Shown here: positions 3,507 through 15,603 of the stretch, piece after piece
How positions within the stretch are numbered: the first letter of the stretch is position 1
Layout: each line of letters opens with the position of its first letter
Notes under the pieces: model-generated
The model's input: only the letters and a program-made list of their open reading frames with translations
Told to the model about the DNA's origin: nothing
Database searches by the model: none
Translations under genes and position numbers: made by a program
DNA from: an uncultured bacterium
GTDB taxonomy: Bacteria; Lernaellota; Lernaellaia; Lernaellales; Lernaellaceae
Assembly (NCBI GenBank): GCA_964534375.1
Contig: CAZHPN010000119.1
Span: 1 to 19,566, forward strand
Direction: 5' to 3'
DNA: 19,566 nucleotides

Positions 3507-3812
3507 TTACTTGCCGCCGGGCGCCACGATCTCTTTGAAAGCCTTGGACAGGCGCGCCTTGACCACGGTCTTGGCCGGGATCTTGATGGTGGCGCCGGTC
3601 GCCGGGTTCCGGCCCATGCGGGCTTTGCGTTTCGCCTTCACCAACTTGCCGACGCCGGGCAGCGTGAACGCGCCGATTTTCTTGGTTTCGGCGGCGGCCA
3701 GCGCGGCCAGCTCGTCGAGCACTTCGACCGCGACCTTCTTCGGCAGAGCGAATTTCTCCGCGAAGTGGGCGGCGATCGCCGATTTCGTCATCGGTTTTTT
3801 AGCAGTCGCCAT
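3507..3812 (-). CDS. hup: HU-family DNA-binding protein
   Basis: 101 aa from ATG 3812 (MATAKKPMTKS) with an AAGGAG RBS. FTLPGVGKL and RKARMGRNPATGATIKIPA match the HU arm motif. The ORF-track extension to 3878 is unlikely. Confidence 0.93.
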   Translation of the reverse strand: MATAKKPMTKSAIAAHFAEKFALPKKVAVEVLDELAALAAAETKKIGAFTLPGVGKLVKAKRKARMGRNPATGATIKIPAKTVVKARLSKAFKEIVAPGGK

Positions 3813-4001
3813 CGGTTTTTCTCCTTTTGTTGAACCAGGGGTTGATTTTCGATAGCACCGTTTGCGGTCCGCGGTCAAGAAAATAATTCGCCTCGGTGCA
3901 TTTTTTTGCTTATTTCACAGGCTTTCCCGCGCGCGAAGGCCCGCAAAGGCCCGTCCTGCAACGCCGCGCGCCGTCGGCGGGACGAGATTTTCCGTCGCCG
4001 G

Positions 4002-5411
4002 TCAGGTCGACGGCCGGCGAAACATGCGCCGGCTGAAGGCCTTCGCCGCCGCCAGCAACGCCGCGCGCGCGACCGGCTGGCGCAGGCGCCGCAGGTAACG
4101 CAGCATCACGTCCGCGCGCAGGTAGAACCGCCGATACAGCCGCCGCCGCGCCTGCCGCAATTTCTGCGGCGTGAACCCGGTCGGCACGAAATTGACGAGC
4201 CACTCGCTGCGCGCGCCGGGCCCGTTGTAGATTTGCCCGAGACCGCGCAGCCCGTCGGCGATTTCCGCGCCCGGGTACGGCGTGAAATAGCCCAGCGCCA
4301 CATCGTCGAGCGGCGCGCGGCGCAGGAAGTGGCGCGTCGCGCGCAGCGTGGTCCGGGTTTCGCCGGGCCCGCCGACCAGCAGGCGCACCTGCGCGCCAAT
4401 GTTCGCCGCCCGCGTCGCCTTCAACGCCGCCAGCGCCTGCTCGACGGTGAACCGCGCGCCGAACCGCTTCAACATGCCCGGTTCCGCCGCCGCGAGGTGG
4501 AAGACGATCTGCCAGCAGCCGCCCTTGGCCAATTCGCGCCAGCCGAAGGCCGAGAGGCTCTGATCGGGCCGCGCCTGACAGGAAAACGACAACGGCAGGC
4601 CGCTGCGCTGAATCAGCCGGCACAACTCGACAAGCCGGCCTTCGTCGATCAGCAGGCTCTCGTCCATCAGGGCGAAATCGACGATCGCCTCGCGGCGGTA
4701 GAGGAATTCCATCATTTCGAAAATCCGCGCCGCGCCGTGCAGCCGCAGTTTCCGGCCGAAGACGCTTTGATCGCGGTAGCCGTCGGCGTACGGATCGCCG
4801 CGGGAGGTCACCAGAATCGTCGAGGGCAGGCGATACGTCGATTGCGGGCTCGGCTCGTATTCCGTCGGCGTCGGCCGCAAGACGTGCCACGCCGGCAGGG
4901 GCAACTCATCGAGGTCGGCGATCGGCGGCCGCGGCTTGCTGCGGCGGATCACGCCGCCGTCGCGGAACGCGACGCCGCGGACCGCGCCGGGTTCGCCCCG
5001 GCGTTCGAGTTCCTGGTGAATCTCCCAGGCCGTGACCTCGCCTTCGCCGATCGCGATGTAATCGATCGAGCGGTAGGTGTCGAGAACTTCCTCGGGGCGC
5101 GCGCTGGGGTGCGCGCCGCCGACGACGATCGTGCAGTCCGGCATCAACTGCTTGAGCTTGGCGGCGGTTTCGGCGGCGGTCGGCAGCGCCGGCGTCGGCA
5201 CGGTCAACCCGCAAATCAGCGGTGCGCTCTCGGCCGCCTTCAGCGCGGCGCGCGTCGGGTCCAGGCTCAGCGCGGCGGCGTCGAGGACCGTCGCGTCCAC
5301 GCCCTGCCGCAGCAGGAACGCGGCGATGCTCAGCAGGCCCAGCGGCGGCAGGTAATTCGGCATCTGGGTGCCGGGCGGCAGCGGTGGATTGATGAGCACG
5401 AAGTCGGCCAC
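4002..5411 (-). CDS. Cobalamin-binding radical-SAM-superfamily protein lacking the CxxxCxxC motif
   Basis: N-terminal B12-binding motifs LINPP, PPLGLLSIAA, GGAHPS, GEGE and DLDELPLP; then TSRG-DPYADGYR where TSRG-CPxxCxFC is expected; later GGPGET and FTPYPGA. GTG start at 5411 with AGGAG at 5417-5421. Confidence 0.82.
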   Translation of the reverse strand: MADFVLINPPLPPGTQMPNYLPPLGLLSIAAFLLRQGVDATVLDAAALSLDPTRAALKAAESAPLICGLTVPTPALPTAAETAAKLKQLMPDCTIVVGGAHPSARPEEVLDTYRSIDYIAIGEGEVTAWEIHQELERRGEPGAVRGVAFRDGGVIRRSKPRPPIADLDELPLPAWHVLRPTPTEYEPSPQSTYRLPSTILVTSRGDPYADGYRDQSVFGRKLRLHGAARIFEMMEFLYRREAIVDFALMDESLLIDEGRLVELCRLIQRSGLPLSFSCQARPDQSLSAFGWRELAKGGCWQIVFHLAAAEPGMLKRFGARFTVEQALAALKATRAANIGAQVRLLVGGPGETRTTLRATRHFLRRAPLDDVALGYFTPYPGAEIADGLRGLGQIYNGPGARSEWLVNFVPTGFTPQKLRQARRRLYRRFYLRADVMLRYLRRLRQPVARAALLAAAKAFSRRMFRRPST

Positions 5412-5419
5412 GCGCGCTC

Positions 5420-6430
5420 CTAGGCCCGCTGCGGCGCGGCGCAGGCGCAGCGGGCGGCCGCTTCGCAGCACGCGCGTTCGCGGCCGGCGACGTCGGCGAG
5501 CAGCGCCGCCGCTTCGTCAAAGCCGCTCGGCGACGGCGCTTCGCTGACGGCCCGCAGGCGCTGCGCCAGTTGCGTCCAGCCCGCGGCGATTTCCGCCATG
5601 CGCTCGGCCAGGCCCAGCCGCACAATGTCGGCGCAATGCGGGGCGGCCTCACGCAGAAACGCCGCATACATCTTGCGGAAGAACCCGCCGCCCGTGCCGC
5701 GTTTTTCGATCACCTGATAGGCGAACCGCGCGCACCACTGCCAATCCGGCGCCGCGCCCCAGCGCGGCAAATCGGCCGCCGCCGCGGCGAGCGCGGCGAC
5801 CCCGAAACTCGGGCCGCGGTCGGACAGCATCCGGCGCGCCATCGCGGCGATCGTCGCCGGCGTCGCCTGCGCCAGCGGCGTCAGCCGCGGCGGCACGCGC
5901 ACGTCGAACCAATCGTTCTCCAGTTGGAACGGCAGGCCGTCGGCGCGGCGCGCGCGGGCGAGGCTCGCCAGCGGCAGTTCCTGCATCTCGGCAAATTCGT
6001 TGTCGCTGAGCAGCGCGGTCTGTTTATCCTCGTCGTAGCCGACGACCAGCACGCGATGGCCGGCGAAGTGCGTCTGCGTGCGATAGTAATCGAGCCAGCG
6101 GATGTCGACGCCGATCAGCGCCGGCCGTCCGGCGTCGATTTCGTCTTTCACCCAGCGCCAACCCTCGGCGTCGTCGCGCGTGCGGCGAATCTCGCACGTC
6201 ACGCCGAGCGCGGCGAAGCAATCGATTTCCAGCAGCGCGCCGCGCCCCATCCACCAGTGCGTCGGGCTCATCGTCGGGTCGGCGAGGTACACGAAATCCG
6301 GCCCCTGGCCCAGCCCCAGGCACATCGGTTCCGAATAATTGTGGCCGTAGAAACGCAGCAGCCGGCTGACGGCCGACGAGCCGCAATGCTGCCCCGTCTG
6401 GTGGACAAACGCCCGAACGATGTTTTGCAT
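5420..6430 (-). CDS. BtrH N-terminal domain / DUF4872 protein (papain/C39-like Cys-His-Asp fold)
   Basis: GQHCGSS...SEPMCLGLGQG...LDYY...HFAGHRVLVVGYDE...LSDN; C-terminal IEKRGTGGGFFRKMYAAFL is typical of this family. Confidence 0.8.
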   Translation of the reverse strand: MQNIVRAFVHQTGQHCGSSAVSRLLRFYGHNYSEPMCLGLGQGPDFVYLADPTMSPTHWWMGRGALLEIDCFAALGVTCEIRRTRDDAEGWRWVKDEIDAGRPALIGVDIRWLDYYRTQTHFAGHRVLVVGYDEDKQTALLSDNEFAEMQELPLASLARARRADGLPFQLENDWFDVRVPPRLTPLAQATPATIAAMARRMLSDRGPSFGVAALAAAAADLPRWGAAPDWQWCARFAYQVIEKRGTGGGFFRKMYAAFLREAAPHCADIVRLGLAERMAEIAAGWTQLAQRLRAVSEAPSPSGFDEAAALLADVAGRERACCEAAARCACAAPQRA

Positions 6431-6589
6431 GCCGCTCCGACCCGTTCGCAGAACGCCTCACATTGCCTTGCGCGGGCCGGGCAGGTCAAGACGGTTCGAA
6501 TGAACCTCAACCACGGAGTCACAGAGAATGAATTAATGAGGAACTCTGTATTGCCGGCCGCGAAGTTCTTCGCGTAAGAAAAAGATTTC

Positions 6590-6735
6590 CACTTAAACCG
6601 CCGAGGACGCAGAGGACGCAGAGGTTTGGGTTCGGTTTGATTAAGAAAACCTCTGCGGCCTTTGCGTTGAAAAAACAAACAAAGTCATTAATCCTGCCGA
6701 CCTCTGCGACCTCTGCGACCTCGGCGGTCTAAGTG
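6590..6735. repeat. Palindromic intergenic element made of 9-bp tandem units, with 36-bp inverted arms
   Basis: Left arm 6590-6625 (CACTTAAACCGCCGAGGACGCAGAGGACGCAGAGGT) matches the reverse complement of 6700-6735 with 3 mismatches. A degenerate third arm lies at about 6646-6668. Confidence 0.8.
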
Positions 6736-6817
6736 TGACCCATGCGGTTGCGGCCGACGGCCGCGCTGTGTTCCTTGTGCGCTGTGGTCAAATCAAAAAT
6801 CAACATCCCGCGGATCG

Positions 6818-7846
6818 TCAACTTTGCCGCGAATCCCTCAGCCGCGCGGCATACATGCGCTCGTAGTAGTCGCGATACGCGCCGCTTTGGATGTCTTCCC
6901 ACCACGAACGGTGGTCGCGATACCACTCGATCACGCCGGCGAGGCCCTGACGAAAATCGACCTGCGGCCGCCAGCCGAGTTCGCGGCGGATTTTCGCTGA
7001 ATCGATGGCGTAGCGGCGGTCGTGGCCGGGCCGATCGGTCACGTGGCGGATCAAGCTCTCGGGCCGGCCGAGCAATTCGAGGATGAGCCGGGTGATCTCG
7101 AGGTTGGCGCGCTCGTTGCCGCCGCCGACGTTGTAGACCTCGCCGGGCCGGCCGCCTTCGAGCACCGCCCACAGCGCGCGGACGTGGTCGTCGACGTGAA
7201 TCCAATCGCGCACGTTGCGACCGTCGCCGTAGAGCGGCAGCGGCTGATCGGCCAGGGCGTTGGCGATGAACAGCGGAATCAGTTTTTCCGGAAACTGAAG
7301 CGGGCCGTAGTTGTTCGAGCAGCGCGTGACGATCGCGGGCAGCCCGAAGGTGCGGTGCTGGGCCAGCGCCAGCAAGTCGGCGGCGGCTTTGCTGGCCGAA
7401 TACGGGCTCGACGGCTGCAACGGGCTTTCCTCGGTGAACAGCCCCGTCGGGCCGAGCGAGCCGTACACTTCGTCGGTGCTGACCTGCACGAATTTTTGCA
7501 AGCCGACGCGCCGCGCTTCGTCGAGCATCGTCTGCGTGCCGGCGACGTTCGTGCGCACGAACAACGCGGCGCCGTCGAGCGAACGATCGACGTGGCTCTC
7601 GGCGGCGAAGTGCACGGCGGCGTCGCAACCGGCCATCGCCGCCGCGACGTCGGCCGGCTGCGCCACGTCGCCTTTCACGAAGCGGTAACGCGGATCGCCG
7701 GCGACGTCCGCCAGGTTGGCCAGGTTCCCGGCGTAGGTGAGCGCGTCGAGGTTGACGATGCGCCACTCGCTTTTTTGCGCGAGGGAGTAACGGATGAAGT
7801 TGGCGCCGATGAAGCCGCAGCCGCCGGTGACCAGCAAAGTCTTCAT
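6818..7846 (-). CDS. rfbB: dTDP-glucose 4,6-dehydratase
   Basis: LVTGGCGFIGANF, LDALTYAGN, HFAAESHVDRS, VSTDEVYG, PYSASKA, SNNYGPLQFPEKLIP and DRPGHDRRYA (RmlB/RfbB). Confidence 0.96.
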   Translation of the reverse strand: MKTLLVTGGCGFIGANFIRYSLAQKSEWRIVNLDALTYAGNLANLADVAGDPRYRFVKGDVAQPADVAAAMAGCDAAVHFAAESHVDRSLDGAALFVRTNVAGTQTMLDEARRVGLQKFVQVSTDEVYGSLGPTGLFTEESPLQPSSPYSASKAAADLLALAQHRTFGLPAIVTRCSNNYGPLQFPEKLIPLFIANALADQPLPLYGDGRNVRDWIHVDDHVRALWAVLEGGRPGEVYNVGGGNERANLEITRLILELLGRPESLIRHVTDRPGHDRRYAIDSAKIRRELGWRPQVDFRQGLAGVIEWYRDHRSWWEDIQSGAYRDYYERMYAARLRDSRQS

Positions 7847-7889: not shown

Positions 7890-8276
7890 TCAGCGCGCCG
7901 CCGCGACGTGCTTTTCGACCATGTCCATCATTTCCGACAGGTCGAACGGTTTTTTGAGATAATCCACGGCGCCTTTTTCCATCGCCCGCCGCTTCTCGCT
8001 GGAAAATTGGATCGTGGTGTACGCCGTCATGAAAATCACCGGGATCGCGGCGGTGCGCGGGTCGGCGCGCAGCGCGGCCAGCACGTCCCAGCCGTCCATC
8101 TTCGGGAGCATGATGTCGCAGAGAATCAGATCCGGCAGGTGCTCGCGGGCCGCTTGCAATCCCGACTCGCCGTCTTCGGCGATCACGACGTCGTAGCCGG
8201 CGAAGTTCAGCTTCGTTTTGATGATGTCGCTGTTCTCTTCCACGTCGTCGATCACCAAAATCTTTTTCCCGGCCAT
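7890..8276 (-). CDS. Single-domain response regulator (receiver only)
   Basis: KILVIDD, PDLILCDIMLPKMDG, PVIFMTA and YLKKPF. ATG at 8276 with a GGAGG RBS; 128 aa; no output domain. Confidence 0.92.
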   Translation of the reverse strand: MAGKKILVIDDVEENSDIIKTKLNFAGYDVVIAEDGESGLQAAREHLPDLILCDIMLPKMDGWDVLAALRADPRTAAIPVIFMTAYTTIQFSSEKRRAMEKGAVDYLKKPFDLSEMMDMVEKHVAAAR

Positions 8277-8299
8277 GTGCGGCGCCTCCCCTCGGTCGT

Positions 8300-9931
8300 T
8301 CACTGCAGCCGTGCCTCATTCAGCGAATCGAGCCGTTCGATCAATTGCTCGCGGCGAAACGGCTTGGTGATATATCCGCTCACGCCGTACCGTTCGCCCA
8401 ACGCCCGATCGTCGGTGACCGTCAACACGATCACCGGAATGCCCGCCAGTTCGGGGTCGCGCCGCAGTTCTTCGAGAATCGACCACCCGTCGCGCACCGG
8501 CAGCCGGATGTCGAGCGTCACGGCGTACGGCCGCAGTTCGCGCGCCTTCGCCAGCCCGAGGTCGCCGTCCGTGCACGCCACCACGCGGTAACCCGCCGGC
8601 TCCAGCGACGCGGCCAGCACTTCCAGCAAATCGGGGTCGTCGTCGATCGAGAGCACGATCTTCGGCGCCGTCGCCGGCCGTCCCGCCGGCACGAGCGAGA
8701 CGACCGCCGGCAGCGCGACGCGGAACACGCTGCCGCGGCCCGGTTCGCTTTCGACCGCGATGTCGCCGCCCAGCAATTCGACCAATTGCCGCGTCAACGA
8801 CAAGCCGATGCCGGCGCCGCCGGCCTCGCGCGTCGTGGAGCCGTCGAGCTGCCGGAAACTTTGGAAGAGGCGCGGCAGTTGGTCCGGCGCGATCCCCGGG
8901 CCGGTGTCGGCCACTTCGAACGTCAGCCAGCCGTCGCGCGGCCCCACGCCGGCGCGCAACGCCACCGAGCCAGCCGGCGTGAATTTCAGCGCGTTGGCCA
9001 GCAGGTTGTAGAGCACGATCTGCAGCTTGGCGCGGTCGCTCTGCATCGGCGGCAGGTCCGGCGCCAGTTCGCCCGCAAACGCCAGGCCCTTGGCGGCAAA
9101 GAGCGGCCGCAACGTGCTCATGATCGACTCGATCGTCTCGCGCGGATCGAATTCCTCGATCGACAGGCTCAAGCGGCCGGTCTCGGCGCGCAGCAGGTCG
9201 ACGATGTCGTTGATCAGCCGGCGCAGAATCTGCGCGTTCGCGCGAATCTTCCCCAACGCCGCGGTCTGGCGGCCGGCCAACGGGCCGTACACGCCGTCGG
9301 CGAGCAACTGCGCATAGCCGAGCACGACGTGCAGCGGCGTGCGCAGTTCGTGGCTGAGGTTGGCCAGGAATTCGCCTTTCAATCGCACCGATTCCTCGGT
9401 CTTGGCCGTCGCCGCGCGCAGTTGCAGGTTCGTCATTTCCAGTTCGGCGGTGCGCTGCGCAACGCGGTGCTCGAGCGCCGCGTTGGCCTGCTCCAGCCGG
9501 TGTTGCGCCTCTTCGAGCTGATCCGCCATGCGATTGAACCCGGCGGCCAGCGCGCCAAACTCGTCGCGGCGCGTCGTTTGCAGCCGGACGCCGAAATCGC
9601 CCTTGGCCAGGGTATTGGTCGTTTGCAGCAGCGTGTCGATCGGCCGCGTGAACAGCCGCGAAAACACCAGCGCTGCGAACACCACCAGCACCACGCCGAT
9701 GAGCAGGATCATCGCCATCAGCAGGTAGGCTTCGCGCGTGGCGTCGGCGACGCGCCCGCCGACGTAGGCCGGCATCCCCGGCGGCGCGTTGGCGACGGTT
9801 TCGGTTTGGACCTTGACGGTCATTTCCTGATAATTGGAAACGAGCAAACCCGTCGTCACGAGCAACGGCACGATAGCCAGGGCGCAAAAGGCGAGGAAGA
9901 GCTTCGCAAAGATGTTCAACCGCGATGTCAC
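8300..9931 (-). CDS. Membrane hybrid histidine kinase (2 TM - HAMP - HisKA - HATPase - receiver)
   Basis: GTG start at 9931 with GGAGG, overlapping the upstream stop. Two hydrophobic helices, HAMP (RRDEFGALAAGFNRMA), H-box FLANLSHELRTPL, NLLANALKFT, DTGPGI, GGAGIGLSL and a C-terminal receiver (IDDD...TLDI...TKPF). Confidence 0.92.
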   Translation of the reverse strand: MTSRLNIFAKLFLAFCALAIVPLLVTTGLLVSNYQEMTVKVQTETVANAPPGMPAYVGGRVADATREAYLLMAMILLIGVVLVVFAALVFSRLFTRPIDTLLQTTNTLAKGDFGVRLQTTRRDEFGALAAGFNRMADQLEEAQHRLEQANAALEHRVAQRTAELEMTNLQLRAATAKTEESVRLKGEFLANLSHELRTPLHVVLGYAQLLADGVYGPLAGRQTAALGKIRANAQILRRLINDIVDLLRAETGRLSLSIEEFDPRETIESIMSTLRPLFAAKGLAFAGELAPDLPPMQSDRAKLQIVLYNLLANALKFTPAGSVALRAGVGPRDGWLTFEVADTGPGIAPDQLPRLFQSFRQLDGSTTREAGGAGIGLSLTRQLVELLGGDIAVESEPGRGSVFRVALPAVVSLVPAGRPATAPKIVLSIDDDPDLLEVLAASLEPAGYRVVACTDGDLGLAKARELRPYAVTLDIRLPVRDGWSILEELRRDPELAGIPVIVLTVTDDRALGERYGVSGYITKPFRREQLIERLDSLNEARLQ

Positions 9932-10668
9932 GCGTCCCTCCGCCTGCGCACCATCTGCATCGACGCATCGGCGGGTTGCGCCGTCCAGAACGTAATCAGC
10001 GCCGCGACGAGGTGGCTGGTGCGAATCAAGAGCAGTTGCCAGCCGCCCCAGACGCCGCGCACGTCGACCACTCCGACGGCGGCGTAGAGCAGGAGCGCCG
10101 CCAGCGCCGGCGCGGTTTGTCGCGCGCGCCCCCGCGGATTGCGGCGGACATCTCCCACTTCGCGAATCATCGCATAAAGGACCAGAAAAAGCGATAGTCC
10201 GTAGGCCGGAAGAAAGCAGCGGAAAGTCGTCGCCGACAGCAGGTGCCGGCTCGCCCAGGGCGTGCTGATCGTGCGTTCGACCCCGCCCCAGAACAGCGAT
10301 ATCAGAAACGCCGCCAGCGACGCGCCGACGACCGCCGCGACCGCCCGCACGGCCGGCGCCCGCCAATAGAGCTGGCCGACGAACATGACGATGAACAAGA
10401 CCTGGCCGGCCAGCGCGATCTCGTTGGCGTAAAAAAACAACCGGTCCAGGCCGAAGAAGACGGACGCGGCGGCGCGCAGATAGCAGAAATACGCCGCCAG
10501 GCGCAACGCCGCGAAGAACCAGAGCAGGGCGGCGCAATCCCACGACCGGGCGAGACTGCGCCAGGCCGGCGACGGGTCCGCCGTCTTGCGCAAAGCGCGC
10601 GCCGCAAACCAACTGATGACGGCGATCATCAGGCAGACGAACGAATTGTAAAACACCGCGTAATTCAT
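9928..10668 (-). CDS. Stand-alone integral membrane protein with about 7 TM helices, putative receptor
   Basis: 246 aa from ATG 10668 (MNYAVFYNSFVCLM), the 3' end of ORF 9928-12246. Seven hydrophobic stretches counted by eye. Start and stop each overlap a neighbouring kinase gene by 4 nt. Confidence 0.8.
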   Translation of the reverse strand: MNYAVFYNSFVCLMIAVISWFAARALRKTADPSPAWRSLARSWDCAALLWFFAALRLAAYFCYLRAAASVFFGLDRLFFYANEIALAGQVLFIVMFVGQLYWRAPAVRAVAAVVGASLAAFLISLFWGGVERTISTPWASRHLLSATTFRCFLPAYGLSLFLVLYAMIREVGDVRRNPRGRARQTAPALAALLLYAAVGVVDVRGVWGGWQLLLIRTSHLVAALITFWTAQPADASMQMVRRRRDA

Positions 10669-12716
10669 GACGGCGCCGCGGGCCCGGTCAGGCGCAGTTG
10701 CCGCAGCGCCTCGCGCACGACCTCGCGCACATCGTACGGTTTCGCGAACGAACGGACGACCTCGTAGGCTTCGGCGAGGTCGGCCTGCACGTTTTCCGAA
10801 ACCAGAATCACCGGCAGCTTCGCGAAACGCGCGTCGGCCCGCAGTTCGCGCAAGGTGTGCCAGCCGTCCTGAAAGCGCATCAGCGGGTCGATGAGCAGCA
10901 GATCGGCCGCGCTGCTGTCGATCGCCGACAGCACGGCCCGCCCGTCGTCGCAGACCTCGGCGCGCAGCCCTTCGGCCTCGAGCGAAAGGCGCAGGAAATG
11001 GGCGTCCTCCAGGTTCGAATCGGCCACCACGACCGTACGCAGGTTGCGCCCGGCGTCGAGATACGGCGGATTCTCCTCCGGCGCCGTTTCCGGCGCGCCG
11101 GCCGGCCGCGTCGGCAGCGACACCGTGAAGACCGTGCCGATGCCGGGCCGGCTGCCCACTTCGATCGAGCCGCGCAGCAGATCCACCAGCTTCTTGGTGA
11201 TATTCATGCCCAGACCGATTTCCGCCGCCTGGTGTCCGGCGCGGCCGACGCGGGCGAATTCCTCGAAGAGCAGCGGCAGATCGCTCTCGGCGAAGCCGCC
11301 GCCGGCGTCCTCGATCGAGAACGACACGAACGCCGGATCGGCGGACGCGGCGCGCAGGGTGATCCGCCCGCGGTCGGAACATTTGACCGCGTTGGCGAGG
11401 AGATTGAGCAGCACGTTTTGCAACTTGGCCTGGTCGGTAAAGAGCCGGACCGGCGTTTCCGGGTCGATTTCCAGCCGCAGTTCGAGTTTTTTGTCGGCGG
11501 CCAGCGGCGCGACCGTCGCCAGCGTTTCCTCGAGCATTTCGCGCACGGGCACGGCTTCGCGCGTCGCGGTCATCTTGCCGGCCTGCAACTGCGAGAGGTC
11601 GAGCAGGTCGTTGATGATGCGCAGCAGGACGCGGGCGTTGAGCGAAATACGCTCGCAGGCGTCTCTCTGCCGCTGACTCAGTGCGCCGTAAATTTCGGAC
11701 GACAGCAGGTCGGCGAACCCGGCGACCGAAGTGATCAACGTCCGCAGTTCGTGCGACAAATCGGCGAGAAACTCGCCGCGCAGGCGGCTGCGGCGCTCGA
11801 GTTTCGCGGCCATTTCGGCCAGCCCGCGGTTGGCCTTTTCCAGTTCGGCGGTGCGGTCGGCGACCATCTGCTGCAGGTTGGCGGAGACGTGCTGCAACTG
11901 CGCGTGCATCGCTTCCATGTCGCGCAGGTCTTTTTCCAGGCCGGCCACGGTTCCCGTCAGCGCGTCCTGGTTGGGGAAAACGCCCTTCAGCAGCCAGCGC
12001 GACGACCGCTTTTCCCACGCGACGTGAAACAGCGTGCCCGTCGCGCCGTAGGTGACGCCGTTGAGCGCGAACGAGCCATCGGGTTCGAGGCGGCCTTCGC
12101 GGCGCCGCTCGGCCGGCTCCGCCGGCGCGACGCTGAAGACCTCGCCGTCGGCGGCGATTTCGTAGGTGCGGCCGTCGATCGGCGAACACGCCGCCGCGGA
12201 GAGCTCGTACTGCAGAATCCCGACCTGCGCCATCGGCTGGTCCCACAGCAGCGGCAGGCCCGCCAGCAGGCCGCGGACGAAGTTGATGTCGTGGTAGGCC
12301 GCGGGGCCGACTTGCGCCGCGTGCAGTTCGAGCGACGCCGAGGCGGCGCCCAGCCGCGCGGTCTTGATCTCGTGGAAATTGCTGAAATACCGCGTGATGA
12401 TTTCGGTGCGTTGCAGCGCCCGCGGCATCGAACCGAACAGCCGAAAGATCGTGCCGACGGCGCCCAGCAGGTTATTCTTGACCGCGAAGAGGCCGACTTC
12501 GGCAGCGATGTCGCGATTGTCCGTCGCGGCGGCCAAGCGCTCCCAGAGGAGTTGGCCGATCGACCAGTCGACCCAACCGCGCTCGGCGGCCAACTGCGCG
12601 CGGCTGGCCGGCAAGCCGTCGCACAACTCCGCGGCATTCAGCCCGCGCGACTCGGCAAACCGCAGAATCGCCGCCGTCACCCGCCCGCTGATTTTCGGAG
12701 TGAACGATTCGCTCAA
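10665..12716 (-). CDS. Soluble hybrid histidine kinase with an N-terminal H-NOX/V4R/AraC-N-like sensor domain and a C-terminal receiver
   Basis: H-box FLADLSHELRTL, NLLANAVK, DAGGGF, LFEEF, IGLGM and receiver LLLID...FAKPY; no clear TM segment. Start uncertain: TTG 12716 after GGAGAAGGGG, or ATG 12749/12752. The sensor-domain call is by resemblance only. Confidence 0.85.
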   Translation of the reverse strand: MSESFTPKISGRVTAAILRFAESRGLNAAELCDGLPASRAQLAAERGWVDWSIGQLLWERLAAATDNRDIAAEVGLFAVKNNLLGAVGTIFRLFGSMPRALQRTEIITRYFSNFHEIKTARLGAASASLELHAAQVGPAAYHDINFVRGLLAGLPLLWDQPMAQVGILQYELSAAACSPIDGRTYEIAADGEVFSVAPAEPAERRREGRLEPDGSFALNGVTYGATGTLFHVAWEKRSSRWLLKGVFPNQDALTGTVAGLEKDLRDMEAMHAQLQHVSANLQQMVADRTAELEKANRGLAEMAAKLERRSRLRGEFLADLSHELRTLITSVAGFADLLSSEIYGALSQRQRDACERISLNARVLLRIINDLLDLSQLQAGKMTATREAVPVREMLEETLATVAPLAADKKLELRLEIDPETPVRLFTDQAKLQNVLLNLLANAVKCSDRGRITLRAASADPAFVSFSIEDAGGGFAESDLPLLFEEFARVGRAGHQAAEIGLGMNITKKLVDLLRGSIEVGSRPGIGTVFTVSLPTRPAGAPETAPEENPPYLDAGRNLRTVVVADSNLEDAHFLRLSLEAEGLRAEVCDDGRAVLSAIDSSAADLLLIDPLMRFQDGWHTLRELRADARFAKLPVILVSENVQADLAEAYEVVRSFAKPYDVREVVREALRQLRLTGPAAPS

Positions 12717-12747
12717 CCGACGCCCCTTCTCCCACCCGACGTTCGGC

Positions 12748-12776
12748 ATCATAGCCAAGCCAAATCCGGGCGTCGA
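12748..12776 (-). promoter_or_regulatory. Putative sigma70 promoter of the signalling cluster
   Basis: Minus strand reads TCGACG-N17-TATGAT, about 31 nt upstream of TTG 12716. Confidence 0.45.
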
Positions 12777-12882: not shown

Positions 12883-13527
12883 CTAGCCATAGCAGGGCGC
12901 GGCGCATTCATAGTAGGAGATCCCGCACGCGTTGAGGCATAAATCGGCCGTTTGCTCGTCAGGCGAACCACTCAGGCACGTCGTTTTGCAATCGCCGTCC
13001 GTCGTGTCGCACGCCAACAGGCAATTGCCCGGGTACCACGTGCCGCACGCCGCCCGCTCGTGGCCGCAGTCGACGCCGCACGTGTTGAAGCTGTCGCTGC
13101 AGTCGCCCTCGCAATTCACATCGCTGCCGCACGCGTTTTTGCAATTGACGAACGTTGTCTCGCAGGGATCGTTGCAGGCGATCCCGCTCGCCAGGCAACT
13201 GTCGCCGCACTGCGTGGCGCAGGTTTCGCCGGCCTGCGTCGCCGTCTGCATGCACGTCGACACCTGGTCCTCGCAACTGACCTTGCAACTCTGGTACGGC
13301 GTGCCGCACGCGGTCAGGCACGTGCGTGCGGTTTCCACGCAAGCCTCGTACCCGGCGTCCAGTGCGGACAGGCATTCGAGATTGCAGTTCCCGCCGCCGC
13401 TGCTCTTGCTGCTGCTCGACGAGGCGCAACCGCCGCCCGCCGCCAACATTGCGGAAATGCTCAACAAAACAACCGTCGCGCTCAACAGAAAAATACCGGG
13501 TCGGAAAACGCTGGAGCTTCGGGTCAT
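12883..13527 (-). CDS. Cysteine-rich secreted, putative lipoprotein (paralog A)
   Basis: 214 aa with a GGGAGG RBS. Hydrophobic N-terminus ending at Cys34, Ser/Gly linker, then 28 Cys in CX3C/CX6C/CX10C spacing. Confidence 0.85.
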   Translation of the reverse strand: MTRSSSVFRPGIFLLSATVVLLSISAMLAAGGGCASSSSSKSSGGGNCNLECLSALDAGYEACVETARTCLTACGTPYQSCKVSCEDQVSTCMQTATQAGETCATQCGDSCLASGIACNDPCETTFVNCKNACGSDVNCEGDCSDSFNTCGVDCGHERAACGTWYPGNCLLACDTTDGDCKTTCLSGSPDEQTADLCLNACGISYYECAAPCYG

Positions 13528-13753: not shown

Positions 13754-14404
13754 TCACCCAAGACACGGGTCGTTGCAGTTGAAGTACGTTACGGCGCAGG
13801 CGATGAAGCATTGGTCCGCGGTGCGTTCGTCGGGGGAACCGTTGAGGCACGCCGTTTCACAGGCGCCGGAGGTTTCCCCGCACGCCAGCAGGCACACGCC
13901 CGGATACCACGAGCCGCACGTCGCCCCTTCTTCGCCGCAGCCGTCGTTGCACGTGCCGAGATTATCGTTGCAGGTTGACTCGCAGGTCAGGTCGCCGGCG
14001 CAGTTGTCGTCGCAAGTGGTGAACGTGGCGTCGCAGGCGCCGATGCACGCAATCGAGTTCTTCAAGCAATTGTCGCCGCACTGCGTGGCGCAGGTCTCCG
14101 CGGCCTGCACCGCGGCCGTCGCGCACGTCAACGACGTCTGCGTACAACCCGTTTTGCAGCTCTCGTACGGATTGCCGCAGGCCGCGTAGCAAGCGCCTTC
14201 GGTTTTCGCGCACACCTCGAACGCGTCGTTCATGGTTTTGAGGCACGCGAGTTGGCAGTTCGTCCCGCCGCCGTTGCTGGCGTTGCTGCCGCCCCCCGGA
14301 AAACAGCCGTCCTGCATGGCGAGCAACGCCGCCGACATCGACAGCAAAAGGGTCGCGCTCAACAGAAAACCATCGCGGCGCAGGGTTGCGATCAGCCGCG
14401 TCAT
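13754..14404 (-). CDS. Cysteine-rich secreted, putative lipoprotein (paralog B)
   Basis: 216 aa with a GGGAGG RBS, Cys34 after a hydrophobic segment and the same 28-Cys ladder as paralog A. Confidence 0.85.
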   Translation of the reverse strand: MTRLIATLRRDGFLLSATLLLSMSAALLAMQDGCFPGGGSNASNGGGTNCQLACLKTMNDAFEVCAKTEGACYAACGNPYESCKTGCTQTSLTCATAAVQAAETCATQCGDNCLKNSIACIGACDATFTTCDDNCAGDLTCESTCNDNLGTCNDGCGEEGATCGSWYPGVCLLACGETSGACETACLNGSPDERTADQCFIACAVTYFNCNDPCLG

Positions 14405-14567: not shown

Positions 14568-15419
14568 TCAGCGAACGTCGTCGCGTTCCCGTTCTCGTTC
14601 CCGCTGCCGCCGCCGTTGACGTTCGAGGCGTTCCTCGCGCGCGGCGATGCGGGCGTTGTCGGCCGCGACGATGTCCGCCGCCACGTCGGCGAGGTTGCGC
14701 TTGCGCGTCGCGTGCATGGGTCGGCCGTCGTCAAATCTGGGCTCCACGCCGCCGAACTGCATTTCGAGCGGCAACCCGTAATACGCCTCCAGCGAGCCCA
14801 GGTACCGCGCGCGTTGGAGGCGTTGCAATTCGTGAAGGGCCTTGTAGAGGCTGCGCTCGAGCGCGGCTTCATAGCGGGAGAGCCGGCCGAAGGCGTCGCC
14901 GTTCTTGGCGTTGTTGCGGAAGGCCAGGCCCAGCGTCGCGGCCAGAAAGTTCGCCTTGTCGCGCGTCTCCCGGGCGGCCTCGACGGACTCGCGCAGTTCC
15001 GGGTCGATCGCGGCGGTCGTCTCGCGCACGGCGGGAAGTCCAGGCGCCGCTTCGCCCGGGTCCTCCGACTTCGCGGCGTGGCCGGCCTCTGCCGCGGCGC
15101 GATCTGCCAGAATATCCGCGTGTTCCACGGCGAAAAGCCCGGTTTCCACGTTCATCGCCCGGCGAAGCCGCCAGGCGCAGGAAATGATCCGGCCCACGAG
15201 AATCCACTCCAGATCCCCGACGGCCCGCAAGAGCCAGCAGAGGCGCGTCTCGAAGGCGGCATACTCGGTCTCGTCCTCGGTCGGCAGGATGGCTTGAACT
15301 GCCAGGAGACCGTGCCGTACGGCGTTGCAACTGACGGCCGCCTTGCCCGCGGCCGTAGTCGGCCCCGTGCTTTTCAGGGCGTTTTCGCGGTTGGCGGCGA
15401 CTTGTTTCTCGGTGGTCAT
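14568..15419 (-). CDS. Conserved hypothetical protein of the 'QxxANRxNAxxSTGPxTxxGK...NAxxHG' type
   Basis: 283 aa from ATG 15419 (MTTEKQVAANRENALKSTGPTTAAGKAAVSCNAVRHGL), with WRLRR and LSRYEAALERSLYKALHEL motifs that I recognise from a widespread uncharacterised family. Confidence 0.75.
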   Translation of the reverse strand: MTTEKQVAANRENALKSTGPTTAAGKAAVSCNAVRHGLLAVQAILPTEDETEYAAFETRLCWLLRAVGDLEWILVGRIISCAWRLRRAMNVETGLFAVEHADILADRAAAEAGHAAKSEDPGEAAPGLPAVRETTAAIDPELRESVEAARETRDKANFLAATLGLAFRNNAKNGDAFGRLSRYEAALERSLYKALHELQRLQRARYLGSLEAYYGLPLEMQFGGVEPRFDDGRPMHATRKRNLADVAADIVAADNARIAAREERLERQRRRQRERERERDDVR

Positions 15420-15603
15420 GTTTCCACTCTCTTTCCGCGCACGCCGGCGTGCGACGTGGGCTGTTGGCGCGCAGCGCAAATCTGCCGCGCGAGCGATCGG
15501 CGTTTATTGGACAGGAATGCCTGTTTATCGCGTTGCAGGGGGGTTAAATGGCGAAGCCGGGCGGCGCCCCGCTCGGCTCTCAACACTCAAATCAGTTTAG
15601 CCA

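Follow-up and report, generated by a model that had tools for sequence, protein, structure and literature searches.

The gene at positions 5411-4002 (minus strand) of the window, the whole 19,566-nucleotide stretch of DNA analyzed here, encodes a 469-aa protein, P0001, which combines a B12-binding domain with the radical-SAM fold but lacks the cluster cysteines. P0001 is very probably a protein maintained by selection and dead for radical chemistry. The gene is the only copy in its genome and has lost the cluster cysteines and the SAM pocket, yet is selected; a second task that needs no catalysis, perhaps that of holding vitamin B12, is therefore probable. The loss of catalysis in this single-copy gene is solid, has happened repeatedly and can be resolved by region.

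An intact frame with a replaced cluster motif

The radical SAM superfamily is defined by three cysteines, which ligate the [4Fe-4S] cluster needed for reductive SAM cleavage. In P0001, the former cluster loop (4773..4796, minus strand) carries D206-x3-D210-x2-R213 in place of CxxxCxxC: residues 206-213, directly after TSRG and encoded at 4796-4773, read D-P-Y-A-D-G-Y-R, and the orthologues have C-P-Y-x-C-x-F-C. The codons are GAT, GAC and CGC, compared to TGC, TGC and TGC at the same positions in the orthologues, and both Cys-to-Asp changes involve two base changes each. A preliminary description of the window had reported this replacement within an intact frame, and the letters and the orthologue codons bear it out. 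P0001 cannot carry a three-cysteine [4Fe-4S] cluster, and it follows from established knowledge that it performs no radical SAM chemistry. As also described earlier, the five remaining cysteines (67, 93, 264, 278 and 299) are scattered and the GxES region has drifted to FHLAAAEP. Among the 120 homologous proteins listed, only P0001 and its sister P0002 lack the three-cysteine motif, with P0056 and P0106 carrying a spaced variant, CX4CX2C.

The frame begins with GTG and, in line with the preliminary description, contains no stop or frameshift over 469 codons and is preceded by a good ribosome-binding site, AGGAG at 5421-5417. This site overlaps the TAG of the upstream btrH-like gene; the 11 bases concerned (5412..5422, minus strand) are identical in the sister locus L019, and translational coupling of the two genes appears likely. 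The earlier statement that the B12 motifs are well preserved agrees with a Pfam B12-binding match (PF02310) of 72.2 bits (cut-off 32.1); the Radical_SAM match, at 25.6 bits, falls below its cut-off of 29.5. The structure prediction that had been proposed as a check, an AlphaFold2 model built on 120 sequences, returned the B12/radical-SAM fold (pLDDT 95.4, pTM 0.93), with the partial TIM barrel present by both the model and the fold search, which suggests that the fold of P0001 is intact. The window contains no Rfam match and hence no cobalamin riboswitch, and no promoter or terminator above chance was found in 3800-6850.

The source genome (G000) is in 381 contigs, and the motif letters were checked in assembled contigs, not raw reads, which leaves some room for an assembly or consensus error at the three codons. 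However, contigs of the DNA runs X3 (3743-5206) and X4 (4689-5070), two runs not flagged as the assembly source, span the motif with 0 differences, locus L020 has identical letters at the motif codons, and L019 encodes the same motif residues by different codons. This comparison covered four of the eight listed runs, the small-share runs X5 and X7 being left out. The sister sequence P0002/L019 refutes such an error, the probability of which is practically nil. No contig is listed for the RNA run X8; the RNA run X6 contributes two short contigs from inside the gene, which match it with 0 differences and weakly hint at transcription.

The only copy of a class-wide orthologue

Each of the 7 other genomes of the family contains a single match at E 1e-60, 51-58% identical to P0001, with CxxxCxxC and with btrH upstream. 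In G000 itself (94% complete), the next-best protein scores 192 bits vs 1048 for P0001, and there is no intact close copy. P0001 is thus the orthologue itself rather than a spare duplicate, and a spare-paralogue explanation is ruled out. In the class as a whole (17 genomes), the best match is open with cysteines in 12 (G001-G009, G012, G013 and G015; in the class tree, a quick tree, the orthology of G008 is less sure) and open without cysteines in three (G000, G010 and G011). The orthologue of G016 (L050, G016:C7:59158-62634) retains its cysteines; several single-base shifts, which may be assembly indels or mark a recent pseudogene, divide it among three frames. No orthologue was found in G014 (90% complete). 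The intact homologue P0013 comes from Candidatus Lernaella stagnicola, and P0224, a more distant homologue of 490 aa, has only the first cluster cysteine, a shortened loop and an intact GIESG.

The cysteine loss is shared with a sister lineage and under selection

P0002, encoded at L019 in another organism, is 60-62% identical to P0001. The two have in common D-P-Y-x-D-x-Y-R-D, with both two-base Cys-to-Asp changes, FHL for FGxE, MDES for HDES, a shortened N-terminal loop, btrH upstream and HU downstream. In the tree, they form a DxxxDxxR clade with support of 95.6/96; with the fragment P0148 included, the support is 96.3/99, and the intact P0003, 58% identical to P0001, branches beside the clade. 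The clade rests on two independent full-length sequences, P0148 being a fragment without the motif region.

Pairwise dN/dS between the window gene and L019 is 0.019 (F61) or 0.134 (F3x4), figures that are rough given the near saturation of synonymous sites in this pair; the likelihood ratio against dN/dS = 1 is 202 (F61) or 174 (F3x4). A branch model run with our own GY94 code was uninformative, with synonymous sites saturated, and the pairwise tests were used instead. In neutral simulations, both frames remained stop-free in 1 of 400 runs at 66% identity and in 0 of 400 at 55% identity. Judging from the tree and the codon tests, the cysteine loss is shown to be old and common to the sister lineage, and the gene to be under purifying selection. 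The preliminary description had proposed a maintained pseudoenzyme rather than a decaying gene and, as a check, had asked whether DxxxDxxR marks a clade under such selection; the clade, the selection and the confirmed codons support the proposal. It had also named two observations that would tell against it jointly: the first, that the closest other orthologues keep CxxxCxxC, is indeed what we see, and the second, neutral decay, is contradicted by dN/dS and the simulations. P0001 can accordingly be called a pseudoenzyme in the sense that catalytic residues are lost while frame and fold are kept under purifying selection.

The window gene evolves faster than its live orthologues. Its product is 60% identical between the sisters vs 69% for btrH, the reverse of what live pairs such as G004-G006 show (70% for the orthologue vs 54% for btrH), and the end branches measure 0.41 and 0.31 for the dead sisters vs 0.19 for the live sister. 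Branches about twice as long as the live one would suit a dispensable relic in slow decay, held open through selection against misfolding or through operon coupling to btrH, as would the failure to find the gene in G014 and the lower number of B12-radical-SAM domains in G000 (37, three of them dead) than in its relatives (46-65 counted). We regard slow decay as highly improbable, however, in view of dN/dS far below 1, a stop-free survival near zero under neutrality, and constraint that tracks functional regions. Moreover, the window gene is the last of the pair, so that its loss need not harm btrH, and a second dead clade has no adjoining btrH.

Constraint is retained in the cobalamin domain and released in the SAM half

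The sites scored were those that at least 10 of 11 intact members of the family conserve, and a site counted as kept if both sisters retained it. The cobalamin-binding Rossmann domain (PF02310; residues 22-176; 4884..5348, minus strand) kept 41 of 52 sites, including the PxLGL, GLT, GGxHxS and GEGE motifs, and the segment from barrel helix 1 to strand 3 (residues 214-287; 4551..4772, minus strand) kept 40 of 49. From barrel helix 3 to strand 6 (residues 288-385; 4257..4550, minus strand), the SAM adenosyl-binding half, 22 of 48 were kept (Fisher p 0.0009 relative to the cobalamin domain), compared to 45/49, 38/54 and 48/50 in three live control pairs. The C-terminal helical region delimited with the AlphaFold2 model (4005..4256, minus strand) kept 23 of 31, the N-terminus 6 of 12 and the cluster loop 2 of 6; the N-terminal loop (residues 10-21; 5349..5384, minus strand) is ~4 residues shorter than in intact orthologues and has lost RYG..A.GN. 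The sisters are 65% identical in the cobalamin domain, 85% in residues 214-287 and 54% in residues 288-385, compared to 51-69%, 73-88% and 72-76%, respectively, in four live family pairs. At the level of sequence, these counts show conservation on a par with live enzymes in the cobalamin domain and barrel helices 1-2, whereas the SAM-adenosyl half and the N-terminal loop have been released.

All five residues that we take, by analogy with the MetH motif, to line the cobalamin tail pocket (G25, G68, T70, G98 and G99) are kept in P0001, and 32 of 39 universal sites are kept in the clade. The relaxed half, on the other hand, carries the replacements G305H, E307A, K319A, K341Q and F343R. Three of these positions, G305, E307 and K319, are 99-100% conserved in 97 distant homologues, and we presume, on a mapping of our own, that they belong to the SAM motifs. 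At the SAM ribose Gly/Glu and at K319, the replacing residues differ from one member of the clade to the next. G347 and E351 are kept in P0001, as are D250 and E251; the latter two and R281 are kept in P0001, P0002 and P0148 alike. Residues 288-385 are the part of the protein with the ribose, GXIXGXXE and beta-6 motifs, which PMC9692996 lists as SAM motifs.

Helices 1 and 2 carry charged residues that hardly vary among live or dead members, less than in the other outer helices, suggesting that these two helices, within the segment of residues 214-287, form a candidate partner-binding surface. At the other end of the protein, residues 414-469 contain 18 Lys/Arg vs 1 Asp/Glu, a basic stretch that could possibly touch the membrane.

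The same orthologue has lost its cysteines a second time

In two further genomes of the class, the best matches found by sequence search are cysteine-less (G011:C127:11127-12509 and G010:C238:4779-6161; L014/L016). With P0251, they make up a second form without the cysteines, which falls among the intact genes of a different family. A single clade of G010/G011/P0251 with P0001 was rejected (AU p 1.3e-5), indicating that the same orthologue lost its cysteines independently in two families. G010 and G011 differ at 21 amino-acid vs 133 synonymous-only codons, with dN/dS of 0.02 (0.04-0.06 in live close pairs). The cobalamin motifs of this clade are changed too (G25R, G68V, G98E and H101F), as is R281. 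Since the clade is nevertheless still selected, cobalamin is not what keeps every cysteine-less copy, and G010/G011/P0251 would be the cleanest case of a cofactor-free role. P0012, in which the cysteines are present and the GxE context and the N-terminal loop are lost, possibly represents an earlier stage of loss; its placement as sister of the dead clade was neither favoured nor rejected (AU p 0.28, 2000 replicates).

The second clade, having lost all three motif sets under such low dN/dS, points to an alternative in which P0001, too, is free of cluster, SAM and cobalamin alike and survives solely through a contact with protein or membrane, its cobalamin motifs persisting as a fold constraint or awaiting the last step of a decay from SAM pocket to cysteines to cobalamin pocket. 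The unusual conservation of helices 1-2 in the family would fit this alternative, and P0012 and P0350, with cysteines and without GxE, look like its earlier stage; a paralogue in G000 described below (C36) has three cobalamin-pocket glycines replaced. What weighs against it is that the cobalamin domain is as similar between the sisters as between live family enzymes, and that so many universal sites survive after 0.3-0.4 substitutions per site on each dead end branch. On balance, we consider a cofactor-free P0001 unlikely.

Other cysteine-less B12-radical-SAM genes

The three-cysteine motif is missing from 3 of the 37 B12-radical-SAM domains of G000, where the whole genome was covered, and from 1 of 65 in G001, 1 of 47 in G011 and 0 of 49 in G004. 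For G003 (0 of 46) and G009 (0 of 31), the count covers the best-scoring domains, a sampling that undercounts dead copies. In total, 5 of the 275 domains examined over the six genomes lack the motif. With 34 of the 37 domains in G000 keeping it, a genome-wide loss of B12 or Fe-S use is ruled out. A link to oxygen was also considered, with a COX1-family match (CcoN-like, under cut-off) in G000 and in one of seven family relatives; it is unsupported because G009 and G016 have several COX1-family matches yet keep the cysteines. The B12-radical-SAM sets of G001, G003, G004, G009 and G011 are very large, at 48-71 matches per genome, and include proteins of 1,500-2,600 aa with up to four tandem B12-radical-SAM units.

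The second cysteine-less gene of G000 (C36; G000:C36:14859-16241 = L055:1501-2883, plus strand; P0339) reads C-Q-Y-G-G-V-A-N. Its orthologues are intact in six family genomes (G001-G006; 48-56% identical), its sister P0342 is cysteine-less as well (support 99.6/100), and P0350 of the same family is the protein that retains the cysteines without GxE. The gene lies downstream of a gyrB-like gene recognised by eye. The third (C65; G000:C65:16578-18332 = L145:1501-3255, plus strand; 585 aa) has intact orthologues in G002-G007 and a cysteine-less one in G001 (L152). The two dead C65 copies group together (support 84.7/76), so that their independence does not follow and the support for a predisposition of certain families to die is only partial.

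Genomic context

The window gene sits between a BtrH_N/DUF4872 gene (5420..6430, minus strand; Pfam) and an HU gene. The former encodes a BtrH-like acyltransferase fold with invariant Cys16 and His125 and lies directly upstream of the orthologue in 8 of 8 family genomes as well as in L019. It is single-copy in 16 of 17 class genomes, carries a CARFxYQxIExRGTGGG block and lies outside any obvious biosynthetic cluster; it is a core gene. Elsewhere in the window, all on the minus strand, a receiver protein and two hybrid histidine kinases are encoded at 7890-12758, flanking a 214-aa membrane protein that has no Pfam match; 12883-13527 and 13754-14404 are tandem paralogues whose Cys-rich products of ~215 aa begin like lipoproteins and match nothing in Pfam; and the 303-aa protein at 14568-15479, also without Pfam match, has a NRENALKSTGPTT motif near its start and is possibly of mobile origin.

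A possible role for P0001

The best reading of P0001 is, in our opinion, a radical-dead and SAM-dead pseudoenzyme in which the binding of cobalamin and of a partner persists, and to this reading we give an even chance. The ancestor would have been a class-wide, single-copy cobalamin-dependent radical-SAM enzyme that probably already had a second role, which would be why the gene survives the loss of catalysis. In P0001, productive binding of SAM and of the ancestral substrate would have been lost, D206 and D210 would pair with R213 and close the empty cluster site, cobalamin would still be bound base-off, and the protein would dock on its partner through helices 1-2. It could hold, donate or sense cobalamin on behalf of the 34 intact B12-radical-SAM domains of G000 or, alternatively, act as the non-catalytic subunit of a complex with the co-translated BtrH-like protein. 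Of the roles offered in the preliminary description, the cobalamin carrier or sensor and the partner subunit fit the split constraint. The Asp-ligated site fares less well, because only two independent sequences show Asp and other cysteine-less lineages display no convergence on it.

A bolder version of a cluster-free cobalamin protein can be envisaged, with one divalent metal held by D206, D210, D250 and E251, or with cobalamin being loaded, methylated or handed on to the dozens of B12-radical-SAM enzymes of the genome. We consider it decidedly unlikely. If true, it would be the first dedicated cobalamin chaperone or non-radical catalyst derived from a class B radical-SAM scaffold, and several orthologous families in the phylum would be repeatedly converting to such roles.

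Databases still label cysteine-less proteins of this kind as radical SAM or cobalamin-dependent enzymes, and the fraction of motif-less domains given above provides a rough size of this annotation error. Furthermore, since a single-copy orthologue has died twice and is yet strongly selected, a second, so far unrecognised function is probable in the live enzymes as well. The dead and live sisters P0001 and P0003 would allow this function to be isolated at the bench, and the pair bears on the practical question of how B12-radical-SAM enzymes are loaded with cobalamin.

Comparison with known systems

None of the 15 listed NCBIfam families, including BchE, HpnJ, HpnR, AprD4, ApyD and PhpK, reaches its cut-off with P0001, the best match being BchE (133.6 bits, cut-off 481) and the profile being BchE/HpnJ-like; the intact orthologue P0003 reaches no named-subfamily cut-off either, and ESM Atlas returned only generic B12-radical-SAM clusters. 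The fold search gave Z scores of 32.3 for AprD4, 30.1 for MgmA, 29.6 for OxsB, 28.9 for CysS, 26.9 for TsrM and 22.8 for TokK. P0001 resembles OxsB (5UL3/5UL4), TokK (7KDX), CysS (9N1D) and MgmA/QCMT (9CCB) in domain order, fold (Z 22.8-30.1) and B12-domain motifs and differs from these class B enzymes in lacking CxxxCxxC and GxES. Class B enzymes bind cobalamin base-off, according to PMC13331322. In the literature searched, subscription papers and supplements aside, the sources (PMC8992657, PMC5682303, PMC9324843 and bioRxiv 10.1101/2021.07.10.451909 included) describe no natural cysteine-less B12-radical-SAM protein.

Among the closest known systems is the engineered AxxxAxxA mutant of TsrM, which, like P0001, combines B12 and the radical-SAM fold without a cluster; according to PMC4632189, it has no measurable iron and still efficiently forms methylcobalamin and SAH. 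TsrM further resembles P0001 in working without 5'-deoxyadenosyl radical chemistry and in its Glu273, described in PMC8992657 as an iron ligand at the position of OxsB Glu363, with which E251 of P0001 aligns. These parallels, together with the retention of D250, E251 and R281 throughout the clade and of both two-base Cys-to-Asp changes in the two sisters, would favour non-radical chemistry in P0001, either as a SAM-to-cobalamin methyltransferase or with a single divalent metal at D206/D210/D250/E251, in the old cluster site beside cobalamin. Such chemistry is improbable, given that each member has its own substitutions at the SAM ribose Gly/Glu and K319 and that this barrel half is relaxed. 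In addition, 7 of 9 identical loop residues are unremarkable at 60% identity, and the other cysteine-less lineages (M-P-G-R-R, T-P-N-A-G, C-Q-Y-G-G, N-P-H-A-G, G-L-P-G-S and S-P-F-E-D) share no Asp pattern. Even TsrM needs the cluster to methylate tryptophan, according to PMC4632189 and PMC5682303. Natural TsrM keeps CX3CX2C, binds SAM and requires the cluster for its product, whereas P0001 has a relaxed SAM-adenosyl half and, of the TsrM-type features (a cluster with Glu on the unique iron and bound SAM), retains only the Glu position. P0001 is neither a functional radical SAM member, nor a TsrM-type methylase, nor a member of any named subfamily.

The top fold match is AprD4 (6FD2; rmsd 3.0, 409 aligned), in which, according to PMC12931638, a cobalamin-type domain is present and cobalamin is not bound. 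The fold alone is therefore no proof of cobalamin binding in P0001, and AprD4 adds a precedent for the cofactor-free alternative discussed above. Both proteins have two domains, with one cofactor site out of use, and they are mirror cases of each other: AprD4 keeps the cluster and has no cobalamin, whereas P0001 has lost the cluster and keeps the cobalamin motifs.
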